Shown here: in pieces, positions 5,295-29,789 of the stretch | Layout: the number at the start of each line of letters is the position of its first letter | Position numbering within the stretch: position 1 is the stretch's first letter | Origin: an uncultured Thermoleophilia bacterium | GTDB lineage: Bacteria > Actinomycetota > Thermoleophilia > UBA2241 | Assembly (NCBI GenBank): GCA_963767505.1 | Contig: CAVYDV010000007.1 | Location: 2,195 to 66,194, forward strand | Length of the DNA stretch: 64,000 nucleotides | Reading direction: 5' to 3' | Position numbers and translations under genes: made by a program | The notes under the pieces: generated by a model | Seen by the model: the letters and a program-made list of their open reading frames with translations, nothing else | Databases searched by the model: none | What the model was told of the DNA's origin: nothing

Positions 5295-5489
5295 GTGCTC
5301 CTTCTCTCCATGTCTGAGGGCAGCGGGTCCTCTTCGCACTCGCTGGCGGACTCGAGTCCCCAGTCTGCCCCCGTATCGACCTTCTCATGCCATGCTTCCC
5401 ACAATCCGCCCTCCTCCCACCCGTCGGTATGGTAGCCTGCCTTGATTCCGAAGCAGCGGGTGCTTCCTGGCGAACCACCAAGGAGGATG

Positions 5490-6395
5490 ATGACGGAGCT
5501 TGGCGGGCCAGAGTGGCGCGAGGAGGAGGCGCGGCTCGCAGCCCGGGACCGCATCACGTTCCTCGGCCATGCGACGGTTCTCGTTGAGCTGGACGGTCTG
5601 AGATTCCTCACCGATCCGCTCCTGCGCCAGCAGGTGGGTCCGCTCTGGCGCCGCACGCCCACGCCGCACCTGGGTCCCCTTTCCGGGCTCGATGCGATCC
5701 TCATCTCGCACCTGCACTTCGATCACTACGACCCACCCTCTCTGCGCCTGCTCGACAAGGGCGTGCCGATCATCGGTCCTCCGGGAAGCGCTCGTTCACT
5801 GCGCTGGCGAGGCTTCATGGAGGTCCACGAGCTCGGCCCCGGCGAGAGCATCCGCCTTGGCCCTGCAAGGATCACGGCTACTGAGGCCCAGCACCCACGC
5901 GGTCGTCACCCGCTGAGCCAGGGTGCTTCTAGCGTGGGCTACGTGATCAGCGGCAGCCAGGACATCTACTTCGCCGGCGACACGGGGCTCTTCCCTGGGA
6001 TGGCCGACCTCTGGCCGGGCCTCGACGTCGCCCTGCTGCCGATAGCAGGTCTTGGCCCCCGGCTGCCCGAGATCAAGCACTTGAGTCCGCGGCATGCGGT
6101 CCGGGCGATGGAACTGCTGCGACCGCAGCTGGTCATCCCGATCCATTGGGGCACGTATCATCTGCCCGGGACCACCTTGATGCGGATGCGGCCAGACATC
6201 CATCGTCGGGCGCCACTGATGTTCATGCGCGAGGCCGCCACCCTGCAGCCGGAGATCCGGACAGTGATGCTCGAACCAGGCAAGGCCCTGAATCTGGAGC
6301 CATCAGTATCTGCGTCGCTCCGGGGGACAGGGTCGCCGCGCCCCGTGGACCCGATGAACCGGGGCTCGCTGGGCGGCTCGCCAGGGTCGGGCTAG
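5490..6395 (+). CDS. MBL-fold metallo-hydrolase (UlaG/RomA-like)
   Basis: ITFLGHAT, LTDP, SHLHFDHYD, YFAGDT, PIHWGT motifs; AGGAGG RBS. Confidence 0.9.
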   Translation: MTELGGPEWREEEARLAARDRITFLGHATVLVELDGLRFLTDPLLRQQVGPLWRRTPTPHLGPLSGLDAILISHLHFDHYDPPSLRLLDKGVPIIGPPGSARSLRWRGFMEVHELGPGESIRLGPARITATEAQHPRGRHPLSQGASSVGYVISGSQDIYFAGDTGLFPGMADLWPGLDVALLPIAGLGPRLPEIKHLSPRHAVRAMELLRPQLVIPIHWGTYHLPGTTLMRMRPDIHRRAPLMFMREAATLQPEIRTVMLEPGKALNLEPSVSASLRGTGSPRPVDPMNRGSLGGSPGSG

Positions 6396-7118
6396 TCGGC
6401 CGCGCGCCGGCTTCCTCTCCCCCGACTGTAGTTCTGTACGATTATCGCCACCACGGTGATGAGGTAGAGCTGACCGGCCACCGCCTCGGCCATGGCCATG
6501 AGCCGTCCCACGTCGCCTCTCGCCGTCAGATCGCCGTAGCCGGTCGTCGTGATGGTCGCAAGGCTGAAGTAGAGGTAGTTGGTCGTCCTCACCGCTCCGA
6601 GGTCCTGGGCGAAGAACGGGTCGCCCTGCACTGAGGCCAGGAGGGAGAACGAGGTGGCGAAGAACAGCGCGATCATGAGGTACAGACAGATCGCGCTGTA
6701 GAGCGTATTGAGATCGACGACGCGATGGGTGAGACGGCGTCGAGCGATGGCCACCGGAGCCACGATGACGAGCAGGGCCGTGAGTCCTGCGGTCACGATT
6801 CTCGCCGTGCCGTCACTTCCGAGAACGCCGACGGCCATTCCTGAAAGTGTGACGATCACGAGAACGGCTGCGACTGACCCGAGGAGCCGCCGGTCTACAT
6901 GTGACGCGCGCAACGCCGCCCACGTGGTGGCCGCCAGGACGGCCAAGGCGATCACTCGCCCGTATGGATTGTCTCCACCCAACGCCGACGCGAAGTACGT
7001 GGCGACGATGAGCACCAGGACGAGGCCGTAGCCGTCCCAGAACCGCGGCCGTGCCTCGGTCGTGGCTCGCGCCTCCTTCCGCGGTCTCTCTCAGCTCGTT
7101 GCCTTCGGCTTCGTCCAT
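6392..7118 (-). CDS. Potassium channel family (ion_trans_2) membrane protein; frameshift near 7045
   Basis: YLYFSLATITTTGYGD selectivity filter and GQLY motif; several TM helices. Confidence 0.85.
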
Positions 7119-7216
7119 GGTCTCCTCGCACTTTACTGTACTCCATCGCTGTGGACTGGCCCAGACGCCACGACGATGCGGGTGGCCGATGAGCCCTCCC
7201 TTCCGCATAATGTGAG

Positions 7217-8038
7217 GTGATGCTGCACTATCCGGCCATATTCTTCGAGAGCGTGATCAGCGACGCTCAGCGGCCGCTGTTCTTCCTCCTCGTGGGCTTC
7301 CTCGTCACGTTCGGCCTGACGCGGCTGAGCACGCGCCTGGCGCGGGCGGGGGTGTTCTCAAGGCTGCGTCCCAGCAGCATAGTGACTACCGGAGGCCTGC
7401 ACATCCATCACGCGGTGTTCGGCATCGTCGGCATGGTCGCCTCAGGCATCCTGGCGTTCGCCTTCGACCTTCGCAGTCCATGGATCGAGATCCTGGCGTT
7501 TGCCTTTGGCGCCGGCGCCGCGCTCACGCTCGATGAGTTCGCCCTCATCCTGCACCTGGAGGATGTGTACTGGGCCGGTGAGGGACGTGCCTCCATCGAT
7601 GCCGTCATCTTGGGTGTGACGTTCGTCACGCTGCTTCTGACCGGGCTGCTCCCAAGGGGCGTCCACGAGGTGGCCGACTACGTCACGATCTCCCGCTGGG
7701 TCGGATTCACGCTGATCCTGGGCGGAACCGCATTCGTCGTTGTGAGCTACCTCAAGGGGAAGCTGTTCATGGGGACAGTCGGCATCTTCGTGCCGCTCGT
7801 CGCGATGATCGGCGCGGTGCGTCTCGCGAAGCCGAACTCGCCTTGGGCTCGGAGGCGCTACGCCGGCAACCCCGGCTTGCTTGATCGCGCGCGACGGCGT
7901 GACGAGGGCTTCCATCGTCGCTGGCTGCAGCGCAAACACCGCGTCTGGGACCTCATTGGCGGCAAGCCCCACCTGCGCATTCCGCGCGGCCCCGCGCCCC
8001 GCGCGAACCACGATCCTCGCGACGGCGATTCACGCTAG
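7217..8038 (+). CDS. Conserved actinobacterial-type integral membrane protein
   Basis: GGLHIHHAVFG, LTLDEFALILHLEDVYW, LKGK and RLAKPNSPWARRRY motifs; multiple TM segments. Confidence 0.75.
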   Translation: MMLHYPAIFFESVISDAQRPLFFLLVGFLVTFGLTRLSTRLARAGVFSRLRPSSIVTTGGLHIHHAVFGIVGMVASGILAFAFDLRSPWIEILAFAFGAGAALTLDEFALILHLEDVYWAGEGRASIDAVILGVTFVTLLLTGLLPRGVHEVADYVTISRWVGFTLILGGTAFVVVSYLKGKLFMGTVGIFVPLVAMIGAVRLAKPNSPWARRRYAGNPGLLDRARRRDEGFHRRWLQRKHRVWDLIGGKPHLRIPRGPAPRANHDPRDGDSR

Positions 8039-8101
8039 TCCGCGACGCGAGGGGCGCCTGGCCCGCGAGCGCTCGCTGGGCGGGCTGGCGGAATCGGCGC
8101 T

Positions 8102-9274
8102 CTAGGCGCTGCGGCCCTCGGTGAGGGCTCGAACGGCGACTCCCAGGCGGCGCGCCCCCTCCGACAGTGCTTCCTCATCATAGAGGCAGAACGCGAGGCG
8201 CAGAGAGGACTCACCCTCGGCGCCCGAGAAGCGCTCTCCCGGCGCGAACGAGACGGCGTGCTGCTCGGCGATAGGCAGCAGCCGGGTGGCGGACAGGTCG
8301 TGCGGAAGCGTCAGCCAGATGAAGAAGCCGCCGGCAGGCGAGGTGAAGCGGCAGTCCGCCGGCAGGTGCTCACGCAGGGCGTTTGCCAGCGCGTCCCTGC
8401 GCGACGCGTAGGCGCGACGAAGACCGGCGAGGTGCTGCTGATATCCCTCGCCGGCCATGACCCGCGCGACGACCGTCGCGGCGTACTGGCTCACGCAGCC
8501 CCCGCTCTGGAGCATGCCGGCGGCGGAGAGACGTTCCAGCAGGTCGGCTCGGGCATTGACCCAGCCCACACGCAAGCCTGGTGCCAGGCACTTCGAGAAC
8601 GATCCCAGCCGCACGACGGGAGCCTGCGGGTCGAGGGTCCACAACGAGGGTGGCGGGCTGACGTCGTACACGATGTCGCGGTACACGTCGTCCTCGATGA
8701 TGATTAGGTCGTGCGTGCGCGCCAGCGCGAGGAGGCGTGTGCGCCGGGCGGGTGAGAGACACAGCCCGGCGGGGTTGTGGAACGTGGGGATCGTGTAGAG
8801 CAGGCGCGGCCTCTTGCCCGCGGCACGGAGAGTGGCCAGGGTCTCCTCGAGTGCGGCGAGGTCGAGGCCGTACTCGTCGATCGGGACAGCCGCGATCTCG
8901 ACCGCGTGATCCCGCAGGGTGCCGAGGGCCAGGGCGTAGGTGGGCGACTCGACGAGCACGACGTCGCCGACCGCGGTGAGCATGGTGAGCACGAGGTCGA
9001 GCGCCTGGGAGTTGCCGCCGGAGATGAGGATGTCCGCGGGCGTGGCCTTATGGCCTTCGCAGCGCGCGATGCGAAGCGCGATCTGCTTGCGGAGGTCAGG
9101 TGGCCCGAGGGGTGCGCCATAGGCGAGGGCACCGGGGCCGTACGTCCCCAGCGCCTCGGCCGCCGCGTCCTGGATCAGGCCAGTGGGCAGCAGTGCTGGG
9201 TCGGGCTCTCCGAAGGCGAGTTCGATCATCCCGGGGCGGAGCTTGTGTTGGGTGTGGCTTGGCGATTCGATCAC
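8102..9274 (-). CDS. PLP-dependent aminotransferase class I/II (ARO8/LysN-like)
   Basis: YTIPTFHNPAG, IIEDDVY, GSFSKCLAPGLRVGW (PLP lysine), GGFFIWL, LRLAF. GTG start chosen 6 nt after a TATCAT -10 box. Confidence 0.92.
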   Translation of the reverse strand: MIESPSHTQHKLRPGMIELAFGEPDPALLPTGLIQDAAAEALGTYGPGALAYGAPLGPPDLRKQIALRIARCEGHKATPADILISGGNSQALDLVLTMLTAVGDVVLVESPTYALALGTLRDHAVEIAAVPIDEYGLDLAALEETLATLRAAGKRPRLLYTIPTFHNPAGLCLSPARRTRLLALARTHDLIIIEDDVYRDIVYDVSPPPSLWTLDPQAPVVRLGSFSKCLAPGLRVGWVNARADLLERLSAAGMLQSGGCVSQYAATVVARVMAGEGYQQHLAGLRRAYASRRDALANALREHLPADCRFTSPAGGFFIWLTLPHDLSATRLLPIAEQHAVSFAPGERFSGAEGESSLRLAFCLYDEEALSEGARRLGVAVRALTEGRSA

Positions 9275-9431
9275 GATCTCATGATACGGGAAGTGTGGCT
9301 CAGGCGTGACGTGCCAGGGACGATGGAGACCGGGGCGCGGACCGCTGCACTGGGTGCGCGTCGTGCTGTAGCATCCCTTCGCTGGGTCGCCCCTCCGTGG
9401 GGCGCTGCGCATCGGGACCAAGGTCGGCTGC

Positions 9432-10871
9432 GTGCTCTTCCCGACGATCACATTCGCCATCTTCTTTCTTGTCGTGTACGCCGTGAGCTGGCTGCTCATG
9501 CCGCGCCTGCGACTCTGGAAGGCGATGATCATCGTCGCCAGCTACGTGTTCTACGGCTGGTGGGACTGGCGGTTCGTGCTGCTCCTGGTGGCGGCGACCG
9601 TGGTCGATCAGGCGCTGGCCGTCCAGATCGGCCGGGCGCGCGCAAGAGCCGGCGGAGGCGGGGCCGCCAAGCGCTGGCTCGTGGTCGCGATCGTTGCCAA
9701 CCTCGCTGCGCTCGGTGCGTTCAAGTACTACGACTTCTTCGCCGTGAGCCTCGACCGCGCGCTCACCACGCTCGGCCTTGGCGTCTCGCTGCCGCTTCTG
9801 CAGATCGCCCTGCCCGTGGGCATCTCCTTCCTCGTGTTTCGCATGCTTTCGTACCTGATCGATATCTATCGCGGCAAGCTGGCGCCCGCTCCGCCCCTGG
9901 ACTTTGCGGTCTACGTGGCCTTCTTTCCCTACCTGCTCGCCGGCCCCATCTCGCGCGCCGCCGATTTCCTGCCCCAGCTGATCACTCCCCGTGATCCACG
10001 CTCGGTCGACGCCGCCAGGGCGTTCACCTTGATTCTCGGAGGACTGGCCAAGAAGACCCTCATCGCCGACTACTTGGCGACGCACATCGTGAACGGGGTC
10101 TTCTCCTCGCCGCAGTCCTACTCCTCATGGGAGGTCCTGTGGGGCATACTGGCTTACTCGGTGCAGATCTACTGCGATTTCAGCGCCTACAGTGATATCG
10201 CCATCGGCGTGTCCCTGCTGCTCGGCTTTCGGCTTCCGGACAACTTCAACGCGCCCTACACGGCACGGACCATCCAAGACTTCTGGCGTCGCTGGCACAT
10301 CACGCTCTCGAGCTGGCTGCGCGACTACCTGTACATCCCCCTGGGAGGAAACCGCAAGGGAAGCGCCCGAACGTATCTGAACATCATCATCACGTTTCTC
10401 CTTGCGGGCCTCTGGCATGGGGCCGGGTGGACGTTCGTGTTCTGGGGAGGCCTTCACGGCGTCGGCTTGTCACTGGAGCGTGCTCGCGCCACGGCGCGCC
10501 AGGCACGCGGCTTGCCGGAGCCTGGGCGTACGCCTCGCTCGCGGGCTCTCCAGCGTCTCGCCGTGTTCTCGTTCGTCAGCCTGGCCTGGGTGTTCTTCCG
10601 AGCCGATTCGATCGGCGGCGCGCTGGCGGTGCTGTGGCGGCTTCCGGCCGGTTTAGGGAGCCTCGGCTCGGCCGTGACCTGGCCGATCATCGGGCTTGTG
10701 ACGCTGGGCATCGCTATCCAGTACATCCCACCGCGTCTGATGGAGCGTTTCGAGGCGGGGATGGCCCGCGTGGGCTGGGTCGGTCAGGGTGCCGTGCTGG
10801 CCGTCGCCCTCTTCCTCATTGACGCGTTGGGGCCGCAGGGCGCGGCCGAGTTCCTGTACTTCAGCTTCTGA
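9432..10871 (+). CDS. MBOAT family O-acyltransferase (AlgI/PatA/DltB-like)
   Basis: LPVGISF, FFPYLLAGPI, QIYCDFSAYSDIAIG, FWRRWHITLSSWLRDYLYIPLGG, GLWHGA. Confidence 0.95.
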   Translation: MLFPTITFAIFFLVVYAVSWLLMPRLRLWKAMIIVASYVFYGWWDWRFVLLLVAATVVDQALAVQIGRARARAGGGGAAKRWLVVAIVANLAALGAFKYYDFFAVSLDRALTTLGLGVSLPLLQIALPVGISFLVFRMLSYLIDIYRGKLAPAPPLDFAVYVAFFPYLLAGPISRAADFLPQLITPRDPRSVDAARAFTLILGGLAKKTLIADYLATHIVNGVFSSPQSYSSWEVLWGILAYSVQIYCDFSAYSDIAIGVSLLLGFRLPDNFNAPYTARTIQDFWRRWHITLSSWLRDYLYIPLGGNRKGSARTYLNIIITFLLAGLWHGAGWTFVFWGGLHGVGLSLERARATARQARGLPEPGRTPRSRALQRLAVFSFVSLAWVFFRADSIGGALAVLWRLPAGLGSLGSAVTWPIIGLVTLGIAIQYIPPRLMERFEAGMARVGWVGQGAVLAVALFLIDALGPQGAAEFLYFSF

Positions 10872-17964: not shown

Positions 17965-19614
17965 GTGACGCTGGCGGCTGTCGAGGGGCGTCTCAAGTCC
18001 CGGGGTGGCCTCCTTGCGCTGTGGCTGACCGGGAGCCTTACCTACGCCGCCATCACACTCCTGATGCAGTGGGCCGGCGTTCCGGGCTGGGATGAGGCCG
18101 CGCATCTCTACAAGGCGTCCCTCGTGCGTGAGGGGCAGTCCGTGTTCTGGGACAACTTCTGGTACGGCGGCAGCTATGGAGCGGTCACCTACGGGTTCGG
18201 CTACTACTGGCTCGTGCAGTACGTGCCGGCCCGAGTGGTCGTCGTGATCGCCGCCGGCCTCATCCCTCCTCTGTACTACATCTACCAGCGTCGGATGTGG
18301 CAGATCGACGACGTTTGGCCAGCCTGGCTCTTCGCCGGGGTGATGGCCATCTACCTGGCTCACGGCCAGGATCCCTTTGTCGTCGCGCTGGCGCTGTCCG
18401 TGGGAGGGCTCGCGCTGTTGGCGACGGGGAGGCCCCTCTGGGGCGCTCTCCCCGTCGCCATAGGCGTCTTCGTAAATCCGATGGGTTTCGTCGTCACCGG
18501 TATCCTCATGCTCGCGGATCTTGTTGCTCGGCCTGAGACGCGTCGACGGTATGCGGTGTTCTTCGCCCCACTGGTGCCCGTGGTCGCCGTGCGTGTGCTC
18601 TTCGGGTGGTCGTTCGCCGAACCAGGCAGCTATCTCAACGAGACGAGTCAGCTCCTCATGTACCTTGGCTTCGCCTTGGCCGGGGTCGCCCTAGCGGGGG
18701 TCAACGCGGTACACCCCCGAGGTCCGTTCGTGACGCTCTTTCTCATCTACGCGGCAGTCTGCGTGACGTCGTTCGTCATGCCGGGCAGTCCGATCGGCAA
18801 CAACATAGGCCGCTTCTTCATGGTCTTCGGTCTGCCTCTCTTGTTTCTGCTGAGACACTCCCGCCTGCGTCGGCCGTTCCCGCATGGCGACCTTGCCATC
18901 GTTCCCATCGTCTTGTTCGCTCTTCTGCAGTTCGGAACGCCCATCGATCACTTCAGCAATGAGCGCGAGCTGCCGCAGACGAGGGAATCCTTCTTCGCCC
19001 CAGCACTGATGGTGGCCCGGGAGAGGCATGACAGCGACCATCGTATTCATGTCGTGGCATTGCGCCGACACTGGGAGGCTCTCTACTTTCCGCAAGCGGG
19101 GTTTCCCATCACTCGAGGCTGGTACCGGCAGGCAGACGCGATCCACAATGGCCTCTTCTACACGCCCTACGACGCGGCCTCCTACGCGCGGTGGTTGCGG
19201 AGCATGGGAGTCGAGTACGTGTTCCTTCCCGACGCTCCTCTGGATCCGTGGAGTCGTCGCGAGGCCCGTCTTCTGGCGGAGTCTCCGGAGTTCGAGGTCG
19301 CGGAGCGCGCCGGCAAGTGGACCATCTATCGTCTTCTAGGGGCAGAAGGGTTGGCGGTCGGGCTCGATGGAGGAAAGGCGCGGGTGACGGCTCTCGGTCA
19401 CCGTTCGTTCAGTGTCGCGGTCGACAGACCTGGGTCCTACTTGGTCAAGATCACCTGGAGTCCCTACTGGGAGCTGGAGGGCAACGGTCAGCTGGTCGCC
19501 GGCAGCGACGGCTTCATCCAGCTGGAGGCAGAAGAGGCCGGCACGTTCACGGCGAGGATTGACGTCGACGTGGTCCGAGTTCTCAGCCAAGCCAGAGAGG
19601 AGCTCCGCAGATGA
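17965..19614 (+). CDS. Polytopic membrane protein, possibly GT-C-type glycosyltransferase-like; start uncertain
   Basis: WDEAAHLY and WDNFWYGG in the first loop, about 11 TM helices, C-terminal extracellular domain with RGWYRQ. Confidence 0.55.
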   Translation: MTLAAVEGRLKSRGGLLALWLTGSLTYAAITLLMQWAGVPGWDEAAHLYKASLVREGQSVFWDNFWYGGSYGAVTYGFGYYWLVQYVPARVVVVIAAGLIPPLYYIYQRRMWQIDDVWPAWLFAGVMAIYLAHGQDPFVVALALSVGGLALLATGRPLWGALPVAIGVFVNPMGFVVTGILMLADLVARPETRRRYAVFFAPLVPVVAVRVLFGWSFAEPGSYLNETSQLLMYLGFALAGVALAGVNAVHPRGPFVTLFLIYAAVCVTSFVMPGSPIGNNIGRFFMVFGLPLLFLLRHSRLRRPFPHGDLAIVPIVLFALLQFGTPIDHFSNERELPQTRESFFAPALMVARERHDSDHRIHVVALRRHWEALYFPQAGFPITRGWYRQADAIHNGLFYTPYDAASYARWLRSMGVEYVFLPDAPLDPWSRREARLLAESPEFEVAERAGKWTIYRLLGAEGLAVGLDGGKARVTALGHRSFSVAVDRPGSYLVKITWSPYWELEGNGQLVAGSDGFIQLEAEEAGTFTARIDVDVVRVLSQAREELRR

Positions 19615-19778
19615 CGGCGCGTTCGCTCTCAGAAGGCGCCGGCGCTCAGGCGAGATTCGGCTCCACGTGTCGCCTTTTGCAGGGCGTTCTCGTGGACGTG
19701 GACCAGTTGACGGCACGAGCGCCCGGCAGTACAGTGCAAAAGGACCGTTTCAGTCCGGTCTGTCGGAGGGGATGGACA

Positions 19779-20195
19779 ATGGGACTTCAGCTCACTCGTG
19801 GCGGGGAGTACGCGTTGCGTGCCATGAGCTACTTGGCGTGCTATCCCGAGGGTCATGTGGCCTCACTGCGGGACATATGCCGAGCGCAGGAGATTCCCGA
19901 GAGCTTTCTGGCCAAGATCCTTCAGAACCTCGCTCACGCTGGTCTCGCCGTTTCGCAGCGCGGAGCGCACGGCGGTTTCGCCTTGGCACGCCCGGCCGCG
20001 GACATCAGCATGAGAGATATCGTTGAGGCTGTCGACGGCCCGATCGCACTCAACCCATGCGTGCTGTGGCCGGAGGAGTGCTCGCGCAGTGACGATTGCG
20101 CAGTCCACGAGGCCTGGATGCTCGCGCAAGATCAACTCATGGGTGTCCTTGGCACCGTCAAGCTCAGTTCGCTCGCTCCTCGAGCGGCCGGCTGA
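19779..20195 (+). CDS. Rrf2 family transcriptional regulator (three-Cys, probable Fe-S binding)
   Basis: EYALRAM, IPESFLAKIL, SQRGAHGGFALARP, DIVEAVDGP, C-x6-C-x5-C-xx-H; GGAGG RBS. Confidence 0.92.
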   Translation: MGLQLTRGGEYALRAMSYLACYPEGHVASLRDICRAQEIPESFLAKILQNLAHAGLAVSQRGAHGGFALARPAADISMRDIVEAVDGPIALNPCVLWPEECSRSDDCAVHEAWMLAQDQLMGVLGTVKLSSLAPRAAG

Positions 20196-20411
20196 CAGCC
20201 CCTCGCGCTCTCACCCGGGACTCATGGCCTCCACGACTGGCGCCGGTAGATTGGCTGACCGGCGTGATGCCGCCCGCACCGGTCCGATTGCGGGCGCACC
20301 ATCTCGAGCAGCTCCCGCGGTGGTGACGAGACGAAGAGAGCGCCTGCGGAAGGACATCCACAGGCGCTCCAATGCTTGCGAGACGAGCCCGCTCGTCGTC
20401 GCTGAGGTCGG

Positions 20412-20429
20412 GCGGCGCGACCGCGCCGC
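20412..20429 (-). promoter_or_regulatory. Putative bacterial SECIS hairpin (copy 1)
   Basis: GCGGCGC-GGTC-GCGCCGC begins 12 nt after the in-frame TGA at 20444-20442; identical to the copy at 20979-20996. Confidence 0.75.
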
Positions 20430-20435
20430 AAGGCA

Positions 20436-20642
20436 TCAGCCTCAGCCGAACTTGCCCATGCGCGGCCCGCAGTTCGACGAGGTCGTGCTCGAGCCGAAGG
20501 CGGTCAGGAAGCCCGTGATCTTCTGCTGGACCTCGGTGGAGCCACACTCCGGGCACACCTTGTCCTCGTCGCGCAGGAAGCCCTGGCGGAAGGTCTCGAA
20601 GGAGTGCCCGCATTCTCCGCATGTCAGTTCGTAGGTCGCCAA
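20436..20642 (-). CDS. FmdB-family zinc-ribbon protein, probable selenoprotein (…NCGPRMGKFG-U-G*)
   Basis: TTG start after GGAGG; YELTCGECGHSF…CPECGS; ends TGA GGC TGA followed by a hairpin. Confidence 0.8.
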
Positions 20643-20683
20643 GGCGTCCTCCTGGTGATGTGTTTCTCCGGCCTGCCCACAGA

Positions 20684-20908
20684 CTACTTGGGCCCCTTGG
20701 GGGGGAACTTCGCTTGGGAGCGAAGCGGCAACACGCGGCCCTTGGTGGGCTTCCACGGTGTTCCCCTGAACTCGAACTGTGACAGCTTCTGCTCGACATC
20801 CGTGGCTCCGCAGTTCGGACAGACCTTGTCCTCGTCGCGAATGAAGCGATGCAGGGTTATCTCGAAGGCGTGGCCGCACTTCTCGCAGACCAAATCATAT
20901 GAAGGCAT
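20684..20908 (-). CDS. FmdB-family zinc-ribbon protein (no Sec, basic tail)
   Basis: MPSYDLVCEKCGHAFE…CPNCGA; GAGGAGG RBS; TAG stop. Confidence 0.88.
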   Translation of the reverse strand: MPSYDLVCEKCGHAFEITLHRFIRDEDKVCPNCGATDVEQKLSQFEFRGTPWKPTKGRVLPLRSQAKFPPKGPK

Positions 20909-20978
20909 ATCCCTCCTCTCGAGGAACCGGTATCACTGAATCTCAGGGGTGTAGCGTACTACACACCGATGTCGTCCT

Positions 20979-20996
20979 GCGGCGCGACCGCGCCGC
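20979..20996 (-). promoter_or_regulatory. Putative bacterial SECIS hairpin (copy 2)
   Basis: GCGGCGC-GGTC-GCGCCGC begins 11 nt after the in-frame TGA at 21010-21008. Confidence 0.75.
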
Positions 20997-21001
20997 CGAG
21001 G

Positions 21002-21202
21002 TCAGCCTCAACACTTCTTGGGAATCAGCTTCTCCCCATCGTACGCGGCGACATCGAGGTTGCGGATGATCCCAACGAGTCTTTGGCGCACACGTGTGGA
21101 GCCGCACTCGGAGCAGACCCTGTCTTCCTTCTGGAGCAGGTGCTCACACTCGAGCTGGAACTTGCGCTTGCAGTCTTTGCACACGAGAGAATAGGAACCC
21201 AC
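21002..21202 (-). CDS. FmdB-like zinc-ribbon protein, probable selenoprotein (…IPKKC-U-G*)
   Basis: GTG start after GGAGG; YSLVCKDC…CSECGS; ends TGT TGA GGC TGA followed by a hairpin. Confidence 0.8.
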
Positions 21203-21243
21203 ATCTTCCTCCACGGAGTTGGCGCTCACATACCCGTGTAGGT

Positions 21244-21271
21244 ATTATACAGCGTAGCCCTTTGAGCGCAA
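21244..21271 (-). promoter_or_regulatory. Sigma-A-type promoter for the zinc-ribbon gene cluster
   Basis: Minus strand TTGCGC-16 nt-TATAAT upstream of the 21202 start. Confidence 0.55.
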
Positions 21272-21346
21272 TCGCGTCGGCGTATGCGTCGCCGGCAAGA
21301 GACGGGCGCTGCCGGGCTCCCTCACAGCGGCGTCGGAAGGATTACC

Positions 21347-21838
21347 ATGCGCAGCAGGAAGCTCCAGTTCGCGGTTCTTGCCGTCACCCTCGCGGTCGCT
21401 CTCTTGGTGGTGGCATGCGGGGGTTCATCGGACTCTTCGGCCCCTTCTTCCGCCTCCGGCGACGTCGAGGTGCTCGCCCCCGCCGATTTCAGCGTGGCCG
21501 CCTACGCCGGCAAGCCACTCGTCGTCAACTTCTTCGGTTCGTGGTGTGGCCCGTGCAAGGCTGAGGCCCCCGCCTTGGCCGAGTTTGCGGCGGCGCACCC
21601 TGAGGCCCAGTTCGTGGGCATCGCCGTGAACGATTCAGAGGACGCCGCGGTGGGGTTCATGAAGGAGTATGGCTTGGGCTACCCAATCGTGATCGACGAC
21701 GGTAGCCTGGGATCGTCGTGGGGTGTCAGCGGGGTCCCGACGACGATCTTCATCAACAGCGACGGGCAGGAGGTCGACAGGATCGTCGGCGCCGCCGGCC
21801 GCGAGCAATTCGAGGAGAGCCTCGAGAAGGCGCAGTGA
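21347..21838 (+). CDS. TlpA/ResA-family thiol-disulfide oxidoreductase lipoprotein
   Basis: Lipobox LVVAC, GKPLVVNFFGSWCGPC, GVPTTIFI. Confidence 0.92.
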   Translation: MRSRKLQFAVLAVTLAVALLVVACGGSSDSSAPSSASGDVEVLAPADFSVAAYAGKPLVVNFFGSWCGPCKAEAPALAEFAAAHPEAQFVGIAVNDSEDAAVGFMKEYGLGYPIVIDDGSLGSSWGVSGVPTTIFINSDGQEVDRIVGAAGREQFEESLEKAQ

Positions 21839-21907: not shown

Positions 21908-22627
21908 ATGATCGCCGCCGAGCTCACCTCGCTGAGTGCCACAGGCGTGGGGCTGGCGCTTCTGGCGGGCCTGCTTTCGTTTGCTTCCCCTTGTGTCTTG
22001 CCGCTCCTGCCGGTGTATCTTTCGTTCATCTCCGGGGTCGGTGTCGAGGAGCTTGGCGGCCAGCAGCGACGGGTGCTCGGCGCTTCCTTGCTGTTCGTGG
22101 CCGGCTTCACGGTTGTGTTCGTGCTCATGGGTGCCGGCGCCGGAGGCGTGGGGCGACTCCTCCTCCTCTATCGGCAAGAGCTCATGATCGCCGCCGGCGC
22201 CTTCATCGCGCTCAGCGGTCTCGTCGTGGCCGGTGTCATTCACTTGCCGAAGCCGGCCATGAGGGTCGTTCCGCGGCGCATGGGTGTCGGCGGCGCCTTT
22301 CTGACCGGCGCCGCGCTCGCCATTGGCTGGACGCCCTGCGTCGGCTACGTCCTGGGAGCCATTCTCACCATGGCCGCGTCGAGCCAGAGCGTGTGGTCTG
22401 GCTCCCTGCTGCTCCTCGCCTACTCCGTGGGGTTGGGTGTGCCCTTCGTACTGGCCGCTCTGGCTTTCGACTGGATGAGCGCCAGGCTCAAGTTCATCAA
22501 GCGCCACTATCGGGGGGTGCAAGTGACCGCGGGCGTCCTGCTGGTCGTCTTTGGCGTTCTGCTCATGCTTGGTGTGCTGGAGCGCCTGAGCCGCTGGCTG
22601 CCGTCATTCAGCCTCGGAGGCCTGTGA
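21908..22627 (+). CDS. ccdA: Cytochrome c biogenesis / disulfide transporter CcdA
   Basis: AGLLSFASPCVLPLLPVYLS and GWTPCVG motifs; 6 TM helices. Confidence 0.93.
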   Translation: MIAAELTSLSATGVGLALLAGLLSFASPCVLPLLPVYLSFISGVGVEELGGQQRRVLGASLLFVAGFTVVFVLMGAGAGGVGRLLLLYRQELMIAAGAFIALSGLVVAGVIHLPKPAMRVVPRRMGVGGAFLTGAALAIGWTPCVGYVLGAILTMAASSQSVWSGSLLLLAYSVGLGVPFVLAALAFDWMSARLKFIKRHYRGVQVTAGVLLVVFGVLLMLGVLERLSRWLPSFSLGGL

Positions 22628-22645: not shown

Positions 22646-25613
22646 ATGGAAACTCGGCACCGCATCGCTGAGATAGGCCCGCAGGCCCGCGCCGCGGCCG
22701 AGGCCCTCCGGCTCGTCGTGTCGGGCGACGTATCGACATCGCGGATCAAGCGCTGGCTCTACTCGACCGACGCCTCCAGCTATCGGGTCGTGCCGGATGT
22801 CGTGCTCGTGGCCGGTTCGACCGACGACCTCATCGCCGCCGCCGCGATCGCCGCCGACTACGACCTACCCGTCGTCGTTCGCGGAGCAGGGACGAGTCTG
22901 GCCGGCCAGGCGATAGGGCCCGGCATCATGGTGGACTGCTTCAAGCTCGACCGCATCATCTCTCTCGACCCCGACGCTGCGACGGCCCGAGTGGAGCCGG
23001 GGGTGATCCAGGCGTCCCTCAATCGTGCCGCGGCGCCCTACGGGCTTGAATTCGGTCCCGACACGTCCACGATCGAACAGGCGACCATCGGCGGCATGGT
23101 AGGCAACAACTCCTCGGGCTCGCGCTCGATCATCTACGGCGAGTCGAGGGACAAGGTGCGGCGCATCGCGGCCGTGCTCTCCGACGGGGACGCTGCTGTC
23201 TTCGGAGCCTCGTCCGGCTGCGAGCTCGCCGCCGGGCTCAAGCTAGGCGGCGGAGCGAACGGGCTGCGGGCGCAAGGGCTCGCCGGGGCCCTCGCGACCG
23301 TACGAGAGCGCTACGGCCAAGCGATTGCGAAGGGCTTCCCGGATGTGCGGCGCTACACCTCTGGCTACAACCTTCGCGAGTTGCTTGAGCCGGAGCCCAA
23401 CCTCGGGAGGTTGCTTGCCGGCTCGGAGGGAACGCTCGCATTGTTCACAGAGCTGGAGGTCGCTCTCGACCCGCTGCCTCGAGTCTCGCCTCGGAGCAGC
23501 ACTCACCTTCGCCGATCTGCGGACGGCTCTCGTGGCCAACGTCGTCCTCCTCGAGACTGGTCCGTCGGCCGTCGAGTTCCTCGATCTCGACCCGCTCCGT
23601 CGCGCTCCCAACCTGCGGACGTTCGCGTCGATGGCGCCCTTTCTTGCCGGGGAGGATGAGGCGATGCTCATCGTGGAGTACCAGGGCAGCGAGGACGATG
23701 TGCATGAGGGACTCGGCCGCCTGCGTACGGCACTTCCTGGGCTGGATGCAGGGGGAGTGAGCTGGCTGGACACGGCGGAGTCCCTGGCGGATGCCGGCGC
23801 GCTGAGGCGAGCAGTCTTGCCGCTGCTCATGGGCGCCCCCGGAGCCGAGCGACCGGCGGCTTTCGTCGAGGACACGGCTGTGGCGCCTGAGCGCCTTGCG
23901 GACTTCGTCGCCGACTTCCAGCAGCTCGTCCAGGCCCGCGGTCTGCGGGCCTCCTTCACGGGTCACGCCTCTGCAGGGTGTCTCCATGTCCGGCCGCTGC
24001 TCGACCTCAAGACCGCCGCCGGGGTCGGGCACATGGGCTCGCTGGCCGGCGAGGTGGCCGCTCTCGTGAAGGCCCATCGCGGCACGATCTCGGGTGAGCA
24101 CGGCTGTGGTCGCTCGCGGAGTTGTCTCTTGCCCGGAGTGCTCGGCGAGGAGCTCTACACGGCCATGGTCGCGGTCAAGGACGCTTTCGACCCATCACGT
24201 CTATTCGGCCCGGGCATCGTGGTGGACGGGACGCCGGTCACTGAAGGGCTTCGCTTCGGCGTCGACTACCGTGCTGCCGGCGCTTGGAAGCCTCGCCTAT
24301 CCTACGCGGCTGAAGGTGGGTTCGACCTGGCGATCGAGAAGTGCTTCGGGGCGGGTCTGTGCAAGAAGCTGGTCGGCACGATGTGCCCGCCGGCCGCTGT
24401 GGACCGTGACGAGGCGCGCAGCACCCGGGCACGAGCGAGCGCGCTCCAGGGCATCCTCAGCGGCGCGATCGAACTCGACACTATCGGCGACAGTGAGTTC
24501 GACGAGGTGCTCGGGAGTTGTGTGGCCTGCAAGGCCTGCAAGACGGAGTGTCCAGCGGGCGTGGACATGGCGGCGCTCAAGACGGAGTGGCTTGCCGAGA
24601 AGCGTGCGCGCAGCGGTGTGCCCGCGTTGGCACGCGGTGTCGGCGATCTCCGTCGTGCGACCGCTCTGGTCTCGTTCGCGGCCCCGGTGATCAACGCGGC
24701 CGCCAAGACACGCATCGCCCGTCGCGTAGCAGATCGTCTGGGCGTGGCTCACACACGCCCGCTGCCGACCGTGGTGCGGCGGTCGCTCACGCAGAGGCTC
24801 GCATCGGATAAGGTCCCCAGGTTGCGCTCGACGGGGAGCGCCGTGCTCTTCGTCGACTGCTTCGTGCAGTACCAAGAGCCATGTATCGGCGAGGCGCTGG
24901 CAGCGATGCTTCGAATAGCCGGGATCGATCTGACCCTCCTGGACGCCGGTTGTTGTGGACGTACGGCCTTCTCGACAGGACAGATCGAGAAAGCGCGCGC
25001 CATGGCCGAGCGGGCTCTGGGTCCACTGCACGTGCGGGCGCGCGCCGGCGACGATCTCCTGTTCATCGAACCCAGCTGTCTCTCGATGATCCGCGACGAT
25101 TGGGCGCGCCTGCTGCCGGACGACGACAGGGTCGCCGAGGTGGCGGAGGCGGCTCGCCCTGCTCTCGCTCTTGTCGCGGATCTGGCCCGCGACAAGCGGC
25201 TCCGTTTCCTCGCGGGAGGACACGTGCTTCTCCACAGCCATTGCCACGAGAAGGCGCTGTGTTTCGCAAGGGCGACGGAAGAGGCGTTGCGCTCCGTCCC
25301 GGAGTTGCAGGTGGACATCCTCGACGCCGGGTGTTGTGGCATGTCCGGTCTCTTCGGCTACGAGGCCGACCATCACGACATCAGCGTGGCCATGGCGGAA
25401 CGTGTCCTGCTTCCGGCGGTGAGAGCGGCTCCCGAAAGAGCTCTGGTCCTCGCAACGGGTACGTCGTGCCGTGCCCAGATCGGCGATCTGGCGGCTCGGC
25501 GCGCGCTCCATCCTCTGGAATTCCTTGCTCAGCGCCTGACGTGCGGTCCGGCCGATGAGGGAGGGCGGTCTCCGTCCTCCTCCAGTCCGTCAGGGTCTTC
25601 ATGGGCTGGCTGA
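22646..25613 (+). CDS. FAD-binding and Fe-S oxidoreductase (GlcD/GlcF fusion, YdiJ-like 2-hydroxyacid dehydrogenase); frameshift near 23485
   Basis: YSTDASSY, RGAGTSLAGQA, ATIGGMVGNNSSG, GSEGTL, then GHASAGCLHVRP, SGEHG, CVACKACKTECP and two CCG domains. Confidence 0.9.
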
Positions 25614-25780
25614 TCCTCATCACAGGCGTTGTGGGATTGTCGATCGCCGGGTATGGTCTCGTCGCTCTGACGATCGGCGCGGTCCGGCGCCGCCAGTTTC
25701 TCGATATCATATGGGCTGTGGCCGTCGTGATCGCCGTGGTCTTGCTTCTCATCGCAGAAGGCGATCGGCTGCTCAGGTGA
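25601..25780 (+). CDS. Small 59-aa two-TM membrane protein (not in ORF track)
   Basis: MGWLILITGVVGLSIAGYGLVALTIGAVRRRQFLDIIWAVAVVIAVVLLLIAEGDRLLR*; two hydrophobic helices around a basic loop. Confidence 0.6.
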   Translation: MGWLILITGVVGLSIAGYGLVALTIGAVRRRQFLDIIWAVAVVIAVVLLLIAEGDRLLR

Positions 25781-26861: not shown

Positions 26862-27109
26862 GGTCTACCTCCTCTGACGCCTCCAGACTACCACCGCGTG
26901 CTCCAACGCATTCGCCGCGGATGCAGCCATCTCCTCTGCAATGCGTGCGGCGGGCACACATCCGTTGTCAGGCTCGACGACGGATTCGCTGGTGCGTCGT
27001 CTGGGGATGTCGTAGTCCCCATCGGCCCGTGAGGACTTTCCCTGTCCTCATTCGGTCGGTACACTTGAGGCGTCGGCAGGGGTGGAAGCCACCAGCGAGG
27101 AGACGCGAC

Positions 27110-29789
27110 GTGAATCTGGCCATCGATGGACGGGAGATCACCGCCGAGCCCGGCGCGACCATCCTTCAAGCGGCTCGCTCGGTCGGCATCGACATCCCGA
27201 CACTGTGTCAGGATGACCGCCTCGAGCCCTTCGCGGCCTGTCGCCTCTGCCTCGTGCAGGTCGCAGGCGCGCCTGCTCCGGTGGTGGCCTGCGGTACCGA
27301 GGTGTGCGACGGGATGCAGGTGACGACCTGCACGCCCGAGATCGACGAGCAACGCCGGATGCTCATCGATCTCTTGCTCAGCGATCACAGCATCGACTGC
27401 CTCGTCTGCGACCAGTCTGGGGCATGCCGTCTGCAGCAGATGGCCTACCGCTACGGCGTCTCGACGACCTCGTATGCCGGCGAGACGCGCGACTACCCTC
27501 CCCGCGAGGACACGCCGTTCATCGCCTACGATCCCGGCAAGTGCATCATGTGCGGCCGATGCGTCGGTATCTGCCAGCAGGTGCAAGGCTGTCACGTCCT
27601 CGACTTCGCGGAGCGCGGCTTTGGTTCATTGGTCACCACCTCGTTCGACCGGTCCATGGTCGACACGGACTGCGAGATGTGCGGCAACTGCGTCTCCTCT
27701 TGCCCCACAGGCGCGCTGCAGGACAAGCTCAGCCGGCACCGCGGCCGCACATGGGACGTCGACCTGGTCGACACGGTCTGCGTGTACTGCGGCTGCGGTT
27801 GCACCATCCAGCTTCACGTCAAGGACGACAGGGTCGTTCAGGTCACATCACGTGTCGGCGAGGGGCCGGGTGAGGGCAATCTCTGCGTCAAGGGCCGCTA
27901 CGGCTTCCAGTTCATCGGGCACCCCGAACGTCTGACAACGCCCTTGATCCGGCGCCACGGGGAGCTCGTGCCGGCGACGTGGGACGAAGCTCTCGAGCTG
28001 GTCGCCGCGCGCCTCGGCGAGATCAAGGTCGAACACGGGCCGGATGTGCTGGCTGGGTTCTCCTCGGCCAAGTGTACGAACGAGGAGAACTACGTCTTCC
28101 AGAAGTTCATGCGCGCCGTGATCGGCACCCAGAACGTCGATCACTGCGCGCGTCTCTGTCACGCGAGCACGGTCAGCGGCCTGCGCCAGTCGTTGGGCAG
28201 CGGGGCCATGACCAACTCGTTCGATGACCTCGAGGAGGCCGACGTCATCCTGATCATCGGCTCCAACACCAGCGAAGCCCACCCCATCGCCGCTCTTCGC
28301 GTGAAGAAGGCATTGCGCCGCGGCGCGAAGCTCATCGTCGCGGACCCTCGCGAGATCGACATGGCCAGCCGCGCCGACATCCATCTTCAGCTTCGCTCGG
28401 GGACCAACGTCGCGGTCCTGAACGGTCTTATGCATGTGATTCTGGAGGAGGGCCTCGCGGACGATGAGTTCATCGCCACTCGCACCGAGGGCTACGACGA
28501 GATGCCCTCGGTCCTCGCCGCGTATACGCCGGAGCTGGTGGAGGAGATCAGTGGCGTGTCCGCCGACGCGCTGCGCGAGGCGGCGCGCGTCTTCGGCAGG
28601 GCCGAGCGGGGAGCCATCATCTACTCGATGGGAATCACCCAGCACTCGCACGGCACGGAGCACGTCATTGCGATCAGCAATCTCGCGCTGCTCACCGGTA
28701 ACCTCGGTCGTCGCGGGACCGGGGTCAATCCGCTGCGCGGCCAGAACAACGTTCAGGGCGCCTGCGATGTCGGAGCGCTGCCCAACGTCTACACGGGCTA
28801 TCAGGCGGTCGGCGACCCGGCCGCGCAGAAGAAGTTCTCTGAGGCATGGGGCGTCGATCTTCCGGACCGGCCCGGTCTCACGGTGACCGAGGTCTTCGAC
28901 GCCATCGCCACCGGGGAGGTTAGGGGCCTCTACATCGTGGGCGAGAACCCGATGCTCTCGGAACCCGACCAGAGGCACGTCGAGCAGGCGCTGAAGGATC
29001 TCGACTTCCTCGTGGTGCAGGATCTCTTCCTCAGCGAGACGGCGCGAGTACGCCGACGTCGTGCTGCCGGCCGCGAGCTTCGCCGAGAAGGATGGCACGT
29101 TCACCAACACCGAGCGCAAGGTACAGCGCGTAAGGAGCGCCGTGACGGCGCCGGGCGAGGCGCGCTCCGATTGGGAGATCGTCGCGGATCTCGCGCACCG
29201 ACTGGGCGCCCGGGAAGGCTGGGACTACTCTCACGCCGGTGACATCATGGAGGAGATCGCCAGCGTCACTCCCTCGTACGCGGGCATCACCTTCGCGAGG
29301 CTCGACGAGGGAGGCCTCTGCTGGCCCTGCCCCGATACGTCGCACCCTGGCACGCCGATCCTCCACGTCGGCTCGTTCACGCGTGGCAAGGGGAAGTTCT
29401 TCCCGATCGTGTATCAGGCGTCCGCCGAAGAGCCAGACGGGGACTTCCCCTTCACGCTCACGACCGGCCGCATGCTCGAGCACTACCACACCGGCACGCT
29501 GACGCGCCGTTCTGACGGGCTGAACGAGCTCGTTCCGATGGGGTCGGCCGAGGTGAGTCCGCTGGATGCCGGGCGACTCGGAGTGATCGACGGCGCCACC
29601 ATCACGGTGGAGACGCGTCGCGGCGCCATCGGCATCCCGGCGGAGGTCACGGACCGCATTCGACCCGGGACGGTGTTCATCCCGTTTCACTTCTGGGAGG
29701 CGCCGGCGAATCGTCTGACCAACCCGGCCAGGGATCCGGTGGCCAACATCCCCGAGTTCAAGGTGTGCGCCTGTCGCGTCACGATCTGA
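27110..29789 (+). CDS. fdhF: Formate dehydrogenase alpha subunit (Mo/W-bis-PGD, Cys ligand) with N-terminal NuoG-like Fe-S domains; frameshift near 29047
   Basis: [2Fe-2S] (IPTLC…ACRLC…C), HxxxCxxCxxxxxC, 2x[4Fe-4S], TVCVYCGCGC, NVDHCARLCHAST, PLRGQNNVQGACD, TFTNTERKVQ, PEFKVCAC. Confidence 0.92.

Follow-up and report, generated by a model that had tools for sequence, protein, structure and literature searches.

Candidate selenoproteins with a penultimate selenocysteine among FmdB-type zinc-ribbon genes of a Thermoleophilia bacterium

The winA-winB-winC locus

The stretch of DNA discussed here (in the following, "the window") comprises 64,000 nucleotides from an uncultured Thermoleophilia bacterium (UBA2241; assembly GCA_963767505.1, contig CAVYDV010000007.1, positions 2,195 to 66,194 of the forward strand). 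It lies on contig C7 of an assembly of 8 contigs (2.54 Mb, 77.7% complete, 67% GC). On its minus strand, three short neighboring genes, winA, winB, and winC, code for small zinc-ribbon proteins of the FmdB type. The open reading frames (ORFs) of winA and winC both run into TGA-GGC-TGA, and behind both lies one and the same hairpin. The arrangement suggests that the first TGA is read as selenocysteine (Sec) and that the hairpin is a selenocysteine insertion sequence (SECIS). The features at the locus are as follows (positions are those of the window).

21002..21202, minus strand: winA, 66 codons, diverged FmdB-type zinc ribbon; GTG start at 21202 behind GGAGGAAG
21002..21010, minus strand: predicted end of winA, ..IPKKC-Sec (TGA 21010-21008)-Gly (GGC 21007-21005)-stop (TGA 21004-21002), reading AAG AAG TGT TGA GGC TGA
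20979..20996, minus strand: SECIS-type hairpin behind winA with GGUC loop and 7-bp stem, 11 nt past the UGA, in the 3′ untranslated region (UTR) between winA and winB
20684..20908, minus strand: winB, middle FmdB-family paralog, 74 aa, without tail Cys, TAG end, without hairpin
20436..20642, minus strand: winC, 68 codons, FmdB-family zinc ribbon; TTG start at 20642 behind AGGAGG
20436..20444, minus strand: predicted end of winC, ..NCGPRMGKFG-Sec (TGA 20444-20442)-Gly (GGC 20441-20439)-stop (TGA 20438-20436), reading AAG TTC GGC TGA GGC TGA
20412..20429, minus strand: SECIS-type hairpin behind winC with GGUC loop and 7-bp stem, 12 nt past the UGA
20401..20446, minus strand: possible lower stem flanking the winC hairpin, GCUGAGG (20446-20440) paired to CCUCAGC (20407-20401) or, alternatively, UCAGC paired to the second GCUGA

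The FmdB family pattern is CxxC-x17-19-CxxC near the initiator Met, and the family models used were PF09723 (Zn_ribbon_8; cut-off 34.4 bits) and TIGR02605 (cut-off 31.3 bits). Both cut-offs are exceeded by winC (44.4 and 41.2 bits, respectively) and by winB (47.8 and 46.1 bits). The scores of winA are below both (21.4 and 15.9 bits), and its placement in the family is based solely on 41-47% identity to the paralogs over 42-56 aa. Read through the first UGA, the products of winA and winC are predicted to be approximately 66-68 residues long and to consist of a four-Cys FmdB-type zinc ribbon, a flexible Ser/Gly-rich linker and a Cys/Sec tail. The tail would carry an invariant Cys followed by Sec, as C-x8-U-G in winC and as the adjacent C-U-G in winA.

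A sequence-only reading of this DNA had already proposed that winA and winC are hidden selenoprotein genes. The TGA-GGC-TGA ends that it described are present on the minus strand at the coordinates it gave. The same is true of the identical hairpin 11 and 12 nt past the first TGA, in differing flanks (20996-20979 and 20429-20412), and of the middle paralog winB (20908..20684), where nothing folds downstream of the TAG (-8.3 kcal/mol, z +1.15). Its product end ..KKC-U-G holds for winA, while for winC it had given a C-x7-U tail and the spacing is C-x8-U. Likewise, the heptamers GCTGAGG/CCTCAGC, from which it built a lower stem around the winC hairpin, are indeed complementary, but the minimum-energy fold uses another register, i.e., the second GCUGA with UCAGC. 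A lower stem is also found in some relatives (e.g., L062, L068, L072, and L090) and is absent in others, and positions 20403-20405 within it differ in RNA-library contigs of a relative.

The hairpin behind winA and winC is the same 18-nt sequence, GCGGCGC-GGTC-GCGCCGC, and the flanking sequence is different in each copy. A dispersed repeat similar to repetitive extragenic palindromes can be ruled out, as the exact 18-mer has two copies in the 2.54-Mb genome, at the winA and winC sites. The 18-mer folds with -14.2 kcal/mol (z -2.66), while the z-scores for the 48-nt stretches that begin at the UGA are -1.83 and -1.16. In a 2026 review, the constraints given for a bacterial SECIS (bSECIS) are a 4-16 bp stem, a 3-9 nt loop with a G among its first two positions, a UGA-to-loop distance of 16-37 nt and a minimum free energy of no more than -7.5 kcal/mol (PMC13188914). 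Both hairpins fall within all of these limits, with a 4-nt GGUC loop, a 7-bp stem, a UGA-to-loop distance of 18 (winA) or 19 nt (winC) and -14.2 kcal/mol. Counted from the U of the UGA, the second loop G is at position 23 in winA and 24 in winC. In E. coli fdhF, the essential G23-U24 lies within a GGUC loop. Since the true stop would be only one codon past the Sec UGA, the hairpin is located in the 3′ UTR.

This position directly behind the ORF is also what is expected if translation really ends at the first TGA. In that case, TGA-GGC-TGA would be a tandem stop, and the hairpin some other RNA element inherited together with the 3′ end, such as a terminator without U-tract, an mRNA stabilizer or a protein-binding site. 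U-tract-less terminators are said to occur in high-GC actinobacteria. RNA-library contigs of relatives that are approximately 94% identical cover winA-winB-winC and span both hairpins; in X16, a single 1000-nt contig extends over 20314-21194. This is in line with transcription not being terminated at the hairpin and thus counts against a terminator, albeit weakly, as carry-over of DNA is possible. The contigs are from relatives 86-96% alike and show neither transcript ends nor one single transcript, and uncovered bins are uninformative; no sequencing run contained half of the sampled words (0.07-0.14 in the RNA-library runs X16-X18).

Relatives and paralogs

In addition to winA and winC, the genome carries three genes with the same kind of ending. 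Thus, five of its nine FmdB-type genes end with TGA, 1-2 codons and a stop, and have a GGUC-loop hairpin 10-14 nt past the TGA. The three outside the window are:

contig C2: FmdB-type gene with predicted Sec end, ..SGFT-TGA-GGC-GCC-TGA
contig C4: FmdB-type gene with predicted Sec end, ..SSGFG-TGA-GGC-TGA
contig C4: FmdB-type gene with predicted Sec end, ..GSGFG-TGA-GGC-TGA

The five proteins are 37-56% identical. Behind their genes the loop is kept and the stems are of two types that differ by compensatory changes, GCGGCGC/GCGCCGC and (A/G)CGCCGC/GCGGCG(T/C). The pattern extends to relatives. In an alignment of 61 sequences, 91.1% of the stem cells are paired compared with 79.7% in shuffles, and double changes are seen in six of the seven pairs (34 double-change cells observed, 6.8 expected). 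The covariation score is 0.289 (a value that none of 500 shuffles reached) vs 0.110, and it is lower in every slid register.

A profile of the five paralogs has matches in 24 of 24 same-genus genomes. The genomes are related to each other, and hence no count given here is a formal statistic. The best same-genus loci parsed by script, 23 in number, all end ..C-x-x-P-x-G-x-x-F-G/T followed by TGA, 1-2 codons and a stop, and all of them have a 7-8 bp hairpin with a GGTC loop 11-13 nt past the TGA. The 24th locus is outside the script-parsed set and was flagged "1 TGA" by the profile search. A scan of one genome per species gave 67 loci. A second stop 1-2 codons past the TGA is present in all 62 distinct genes with an F-[GTS]-TGA or KKC(A)-TGA end (tail length unfiltered), against a background of 25 among 951 TGA-ended ORFs of the genome. 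In these 62 genes, the codon after the TGA specifies Gly in 52 (GGC 47, GGG 3, and GGA 2), Ala in eight (GCC/GCG), Arg in one (CGC) and Ser in one (AGT), and the bases between the second stop and the hairpin are freely variable. In 60 of 62 genes, the codon between the two stops is thus Gly, with synonymous changes, or Ala, and the bases that follow are variable; this argues against a mere tandem stop. Moreover, the four ribbon Cys, the tail Cys (Cys58 in winC) and the predicted Sec column (position 67) are invariant in 73 of 73 aligned proteins. The orthologs of winA (L062, L089, and L092) end KKC-U-G-TGA, KKCA-U-A-TAA, and KKCA-U-A-TAG, each with the hairpin.

The loci fall into two tail types: a Sec type with hairpin and a Cys-rich type (..GFGGGGGCCGGSCGCGH-stop) without it. 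The Sec type, with its ..GF[GTS]-TGA-1-2 codons-stop ending, was found in 27 of 29 script-parsed loci of a second Thermoleophilia family (f4), and also in metagenome-assembled genomes (MAGs) labelled Coriobacteriia, Actinomycetes, and Eubacteriales. In all, the analysis recovered 77 distinct Sec-type proteins, whose sources are Thermoleophilia and other MAGs with the label Actinomycetota or Bacillota. The distant genes have different hairpins, mostly with GU in the loop (e.g., CGUGCG, GUAG, GGUU, and GUUU), and TGA, TAG, and TAA are all used as the second stop.

The Sec-type tails of the f4 family (L138-L159) have two or three extra spaced Cys, e.g., ..GACLDTGRCVPSSGCAPRSGFS-U-AG. This Cys3-Sec pattern is more reminiscent of a metal site than of a simple redox pair.

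The suggestion of the sequence-only reading that gene callers truncate these proteins is supported by their database homologs, 12 of 15 of which end ..FG. None is named a selenoprotein; the only names are "putative FmdB family regulatory protein" and "zinc ribbon domain-containing protein".

Selenocysteine machinery and the reading of the UGA

The genome encodes the machinery needed for Sec insertion. The sel genes constitute one locus on contig C5 with tRNA-Sec (70.5 bits, cut-off 47; SeC(tca) according to aragorn), selB (310 bits; the same 726-aa frame also contains its C-terminal part), selA (399 bits) and selD (346 bits), the last with an in-frame TGA of its own (AKSG-U-AAK). Hence selA, selB, selC, and selD, the genes to which the sequence-only reading had pointed as a check, are all in the genome. 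A hairpin of the same kind, too, is present where that reading suggested looking for it, at a known selenoprotein. The gene for PrxU, a peroxiredoxin selenoprotein (FTFV-U-PTE), has the hairpin TCTCGGC-GGTC-GCCGAGA 10 nt past its in-frame TGA. Here, a GGUC-loop hairpin at the same distance is inside the coding region, where a terminator would make no sense, and this speaks against the first TGA of winA and winC being the real stop.

A genome scan also looked for GGTC-loop hairpins with 5 bp or more that lie 6-19 nt past a TGA. With a coding-signal filter, such hairpins were found after five TGA and after two TAG/TAA, the latter with 5-bp stems. The five TGA cases are three FmdB-type genes, PrxU and a membrane-like ORF. 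Because the hairpin is linked to TGA in this way and only 0-2 weak TAG/TAA cases are known in the genome, a general terminator after any stop is ruled out, and the hairpin is not widespread behind non-TGA stops.

The membrane-like ORF is located on contig C5 at about 119420-119846 on the plus strand (L031:922-1347), approximately 3 kb from tRNA-Sec. Its sequence is ..YVSGPPPGGT-TGA-GAVLPPVGGVLAAILGLQ, and 10 nt past the TGA lies the hairpin TTCCTCC-GGTC-GGAGGGG. It has no match to an NCBIfam family and may be another uncatalogued selenoprotein.

The distribution of the TGA form was compared with that of selA in 150 class-level genomes, each at least 90% complete. A match that reads through TGA was present in 38 genomes, 37 of which have selA. 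In family f2, no match contains a TGA, the tails looked at are Cys-rich, and selA was found in eight of 27 genomes. In family f4, selA is present in 18 of the 19 TGA-type genomes tested, and the two genomes with a Cys tail (G080 and G108) are both without it. Cys forms in place of Sec forms, in genomes that lack the machinery, are the evolutionary signature usually seen with real selenoproteins. That the TGA form tracks selA, with Cys-rich tails where selA is missing, is difficult to reconcile with an ordinary stop codon.

Several observations weigh against selenoproteins at this locus. The stability of the hairpin is unremarkable compared with GC-rich shuffles (z -1.2 to -2.7), and it is weak evidence in DNA with 67% GC. 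No homolog has a Cys exactly at the Sec position followed by Gly and a stop. The Cys-form homologs have a longer GFGGGGGCCGGxCGCGH tail in which the Cys begin 4-6 residues past the shared GFG; the UGA thus corresponds to Cys only loosely, and the Cys forms and Sec do not align residue for residue. In the assembly, selA is spread over three reading frames (G000:C5:126590-127986). Furthermore, five of the 24 same-genus genomes (93, 90, 66, 68, and 64% complete) keep the TGA form with an intact hairpin, and no selA, selB, selD, tRNA-Sec or PrxU was found in them; G139 (92% complete) is a similar case. Finally, the function proposed below is based only on the gene neighborhood and on an analogy with the tail of thioredoxin reductase.

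The modest folding z-scores and the genomes that keep the motif and in which no sel genes were found are observations that, next to the position of the hairpin, favor the first TGA as a real stop. However, the sel genes share one locus, and the summed missing fractions predict approximately 3.5 sel-less genomes among the 24 (hand calculation); missing contigs may therefore be sufficient to explain these cases. Given the PrxU hairpin, the TGA-linked occurrence, the codon between the stops and the co-occurrence with selA, we regard a real stop followed by an unrelated RNA element as highly improbable.

The broken selA raises a second alternative: that these are true Sec genes of the lineage, and Sec insertion is defunct in this bacterium, with products that stop at ..KFG and ..KKC. 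Against this, the closest sampled relative (G060, 97% complete), which has the same five genes and the trio, gives a selA match over model positions 1-452 in one stop-free frame. In addition, selD and PrxU of the present genome retain in-frame TGAs with hairpins, and the five FmdB hairpins are all intact. Signs of frameshifts are also seen in other long genes of the window and point to assembly indels: a FAD-binding oxidase/Fe-S gene (22646-25700, plus strand) and the gene for a Cys-type formate dehydrogenase alpha subunit (26921-29789, plus strand) each continue in a second reading frame. Because of these two genes, and because 26 of the 27 family genomes with at least 90% completeness have an intact selA, the breaks in selA are attributed to assembly indel errors rather than to a pseudogene, a real pseudogene being the other possibility. 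A loss of Sec insertion in this bacterium thus appears quite unlikely.

Collectively, the sel genes, the PrxU hairpin, the covariation of the stem, the conserved ending and the tracking of selA support the original selenoprotein proposal. On these comparative sequence data, we estimate the probability that winA and winC are selenoprotein genes whose first UGA is read as Sec to be roughly 0.87. In the model, SelB in complex with Sec-tRNA(Sec) would decode the first UGA of winA and winC, and the GGUC-loop hairpin 11-12 nt downstream would recruit SelB. The decoding would be the ordinary bacterial mechanism; the unusual feature would be a SECIS that is wholly past the stop codon.

Apart from Sec, the genome encodes a second specialized decoding system. 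Contig C4 (L160, C4:438000-454000) carries, at 4658-10799, a complete pyrrolysine cluster with pylB (424.7 bits), pylC (293 bits), pylD (197 bits) and the pylS C-terminal subunit (296.6 bits), a tRNA(CUA) whose anticodon stem has the 6 bp typical of tRNA-Pyl, a probable pylSn, and a corrinoid protein with a score just below the cut-off (212.7 vs 215.3 bits). Together with the sel genes, this makes the bacterium a Thermoleophilia MAG with machinery for the 21st as well as the 22nd amino acid.

Known families, gene neighborhood and possible function

That Sec in the FmdB family might already appear in prediction surveys, as the sequence-only reading surmised, is correct. Zhang and Gladyshev predicted two FmdB-family selenoproteins with a CxxU motif in the marine metagenome of Global Ocean Sampling (GOS) in 2008, with Sec inside the zinc-binding CxxC (PMC2398784). 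The motif is given as U/CxxU in a 2022 review (PMC9312934) and as UxxU with two Sec in the 2026 review (PMC13188914); both list the family under TIGR02605 without an accession. The GOS proteins share with those described here the TIGR02605/PF09723 zinc ribbon and a UGA-encoded Sec with a bacterial SECIS. They differ in that their Sec is part of the zinc site. In the present group, the four ribbon Cys are ordinary (73 of 73) and Sec is predicted in the tail, at the penultimate (sometimes antepenultimate) position, with the SECIS beyond the stop codon.

Another group with similarities is the families with C-terminal Sec, KCU-star, UXX-star, and SaoC. In these, Sec is at most three residues from the C-terminus, the SECIS is largely in the 3′ UTR, the proteins are truncated by gene callers, and a Cys adjoins Sec or is near to it. 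However, they have glutaredoxin-like, DUF466 or other folds and are unrelated in sequence to the FmdB zinc ribbons. The dual CXXC motif small selenoprotein (NF041197; OS_HP3/DW) and protein DG (NF049953) resemble the present proteins in being tiny, with CxxC...CxxC and one Sec, and in being missed by annotation. Their Sec motifs are RxU, GxU, and GUxG vs F-[GTS]-U here, and they are not listed as C-terminal (-star) forms (PMC13188914).

As far as NCBIfam release 20 is concerned, it can be ruled out that the Sec-type genes belong to a known family of C-terminal-Sec or small zinc-ribbon selenoproteins. Nine Sec-type read-through proteins, including the five of this genome, and one Cys-tail relative had no match at E <= 1 to NF033934 (KCU-star), NF041114/NF041211 (UXX-star), SaoC, NF041197 or NF049953, and winA, winB, and winC had none to these models at E <= 0.01. 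NF041211 matches only unrelated loci of the genome, all under its cut-off. A zinc-ribbon family with C-terminal Sec is likewise absent from the 2026 table of 119 selenoprotein families (PMC13188914), and the main texts of BSepDB (PMC13326102) and deep-Sep (PMC12013277) do not mention FmdB or zinc ribbons; their supplements could list such genes. Literature searches on FmdB zinc ribbons, zinc-ribbon selenoproteins or SECIS, and selenocysteine in Thermoleophilia gave nothing relevant. The C-terminal C-x8-10-GF[GTS]-U-G is thus a new position and motif in a family with known Sec. It marks a broad group that is uncatalogued in the sources compared, with a prior listing in a supplement or primary paper being possible.

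On the plus strand, the three genes are surrounded by the following neighbors.

21284..21838, plus strand: TlpA-like thioredoxin-fold protein with WCGPC motif (Redoxin 66.1 bits, Thioredoxin 50.1 bits)
21908..22627, plus strand: CcdA/DsbD-type membrane thiol-disulfide electron transporter, downstream of TlpA (DsbD_TM 51.9 bits)
19611..20195, plus strand: Rrf2-family transcriptional regulator, convergent with winC (Rrf2 123.8 bits)

Genes of the main type are divergent from a TlpA-like thioredoxin and a CcdA/DsbD-type transporter, and this arrangement recurs among relatives. TlpA is within 1.5 kb of 43 of 60 Sec-type loci vs three of 34 non-Sec loci, CcdA is present at 39 of 60 vs none of 34, and Rrf2 is downstream at 16 of 60 vs none of 34. 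These counts refer to flanks of 1.5 kb only and include at least four duplicate loci and one false "Sec" call (L061). The trio of winA, winB, and winC takes the place of a single gene in this genome and in three relatives. The neighbors of the three paralogs outside the window have no common theme (GNAT, PGA_cap, pterin dehydratase, EamA, and subtilase).

winA and the TlpA-like gene start divergently on either side of an 81-nt gap (21203-21283), in which there is a TATAAT-like hexamer (GTATAATACC, about 21250-21241, minus strand). This gap is an obvious site at which both could be regulated together, with the conserved Rrf2 protein as a possible regulator.

Modeling of winC with AlphaFold2 (73 aligned sequences) gave, at moderate confidence, a three-stranded ribbon with a predicted local distance difference test (pLDDT) score of 71-77 and a disordered tail with 47-54; the mean of 65 is below what is of use for a fold search. 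A sequence search of solved structures returned only generic zinc-finger matches. The predicted disorder of the tail would place the invariant Cys and Sec, 8-10 residues apart and adjacent in winA, on a flexible arm.

Animal thioredoxin reductase has a C-terminal Gly-Cys-Sec-Gly redox tail. The predicted Cys-Sec-Gly-COOH end of winA resembles it, as does the predicted flexibility of the tail (pLDDT 47-54 in the winC model), and a selenenylsulfide would be possible. There are differences as well: the proteins here have no flavoprotein domain that could reduce their own tail, and most have C-x8-10-U. The likeness is thus one of motif only.

Because the Cys/Sec arm is predicted to be flexible and the TlpA and CcdA neighbors are conserved, the tail pair may act as a mobile selenenylsulfide redox arm or as an arm that binds soft metals. 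By inference from the neighborhood, it is probably tied to the divergent TlpA-CcdA thiol-disulfide relay and the nearby Rrf2 regulator. A more far-reaching idea, which we consider speculative and rather unlikely in its full form, is that of a new class of minimal selenium redox carriers. In these, the ribbon would serve as a handle for a Cys...Sec-Gly selenenylsulfide tail, similar to a free-standing tail of thioredoxin reductase, that feeds or senses CcdA-TlpA under Rrf2 control, with five paralogs in this genome and reversion to a Cys-rich tail upon loss of Sec.

If the selenoprotein reading is correct, it adds a widespread group of selenoproteins that annotation pipelines truncated in every case looked at, and the residues lost, the last two or three, would be the working part of these members of the FmdB zinc-ribbon family. 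It would also provide many natural examples of a bacterial SECIS placed entirely past the stop codon, the layout that is used to express mammalian thioredoxin reductase in E. coli. Moreover, the conserved TlpA-CcdA-Rrf2 neighborhood would offer a concrete and testable hypothesis for a redox function of the family.

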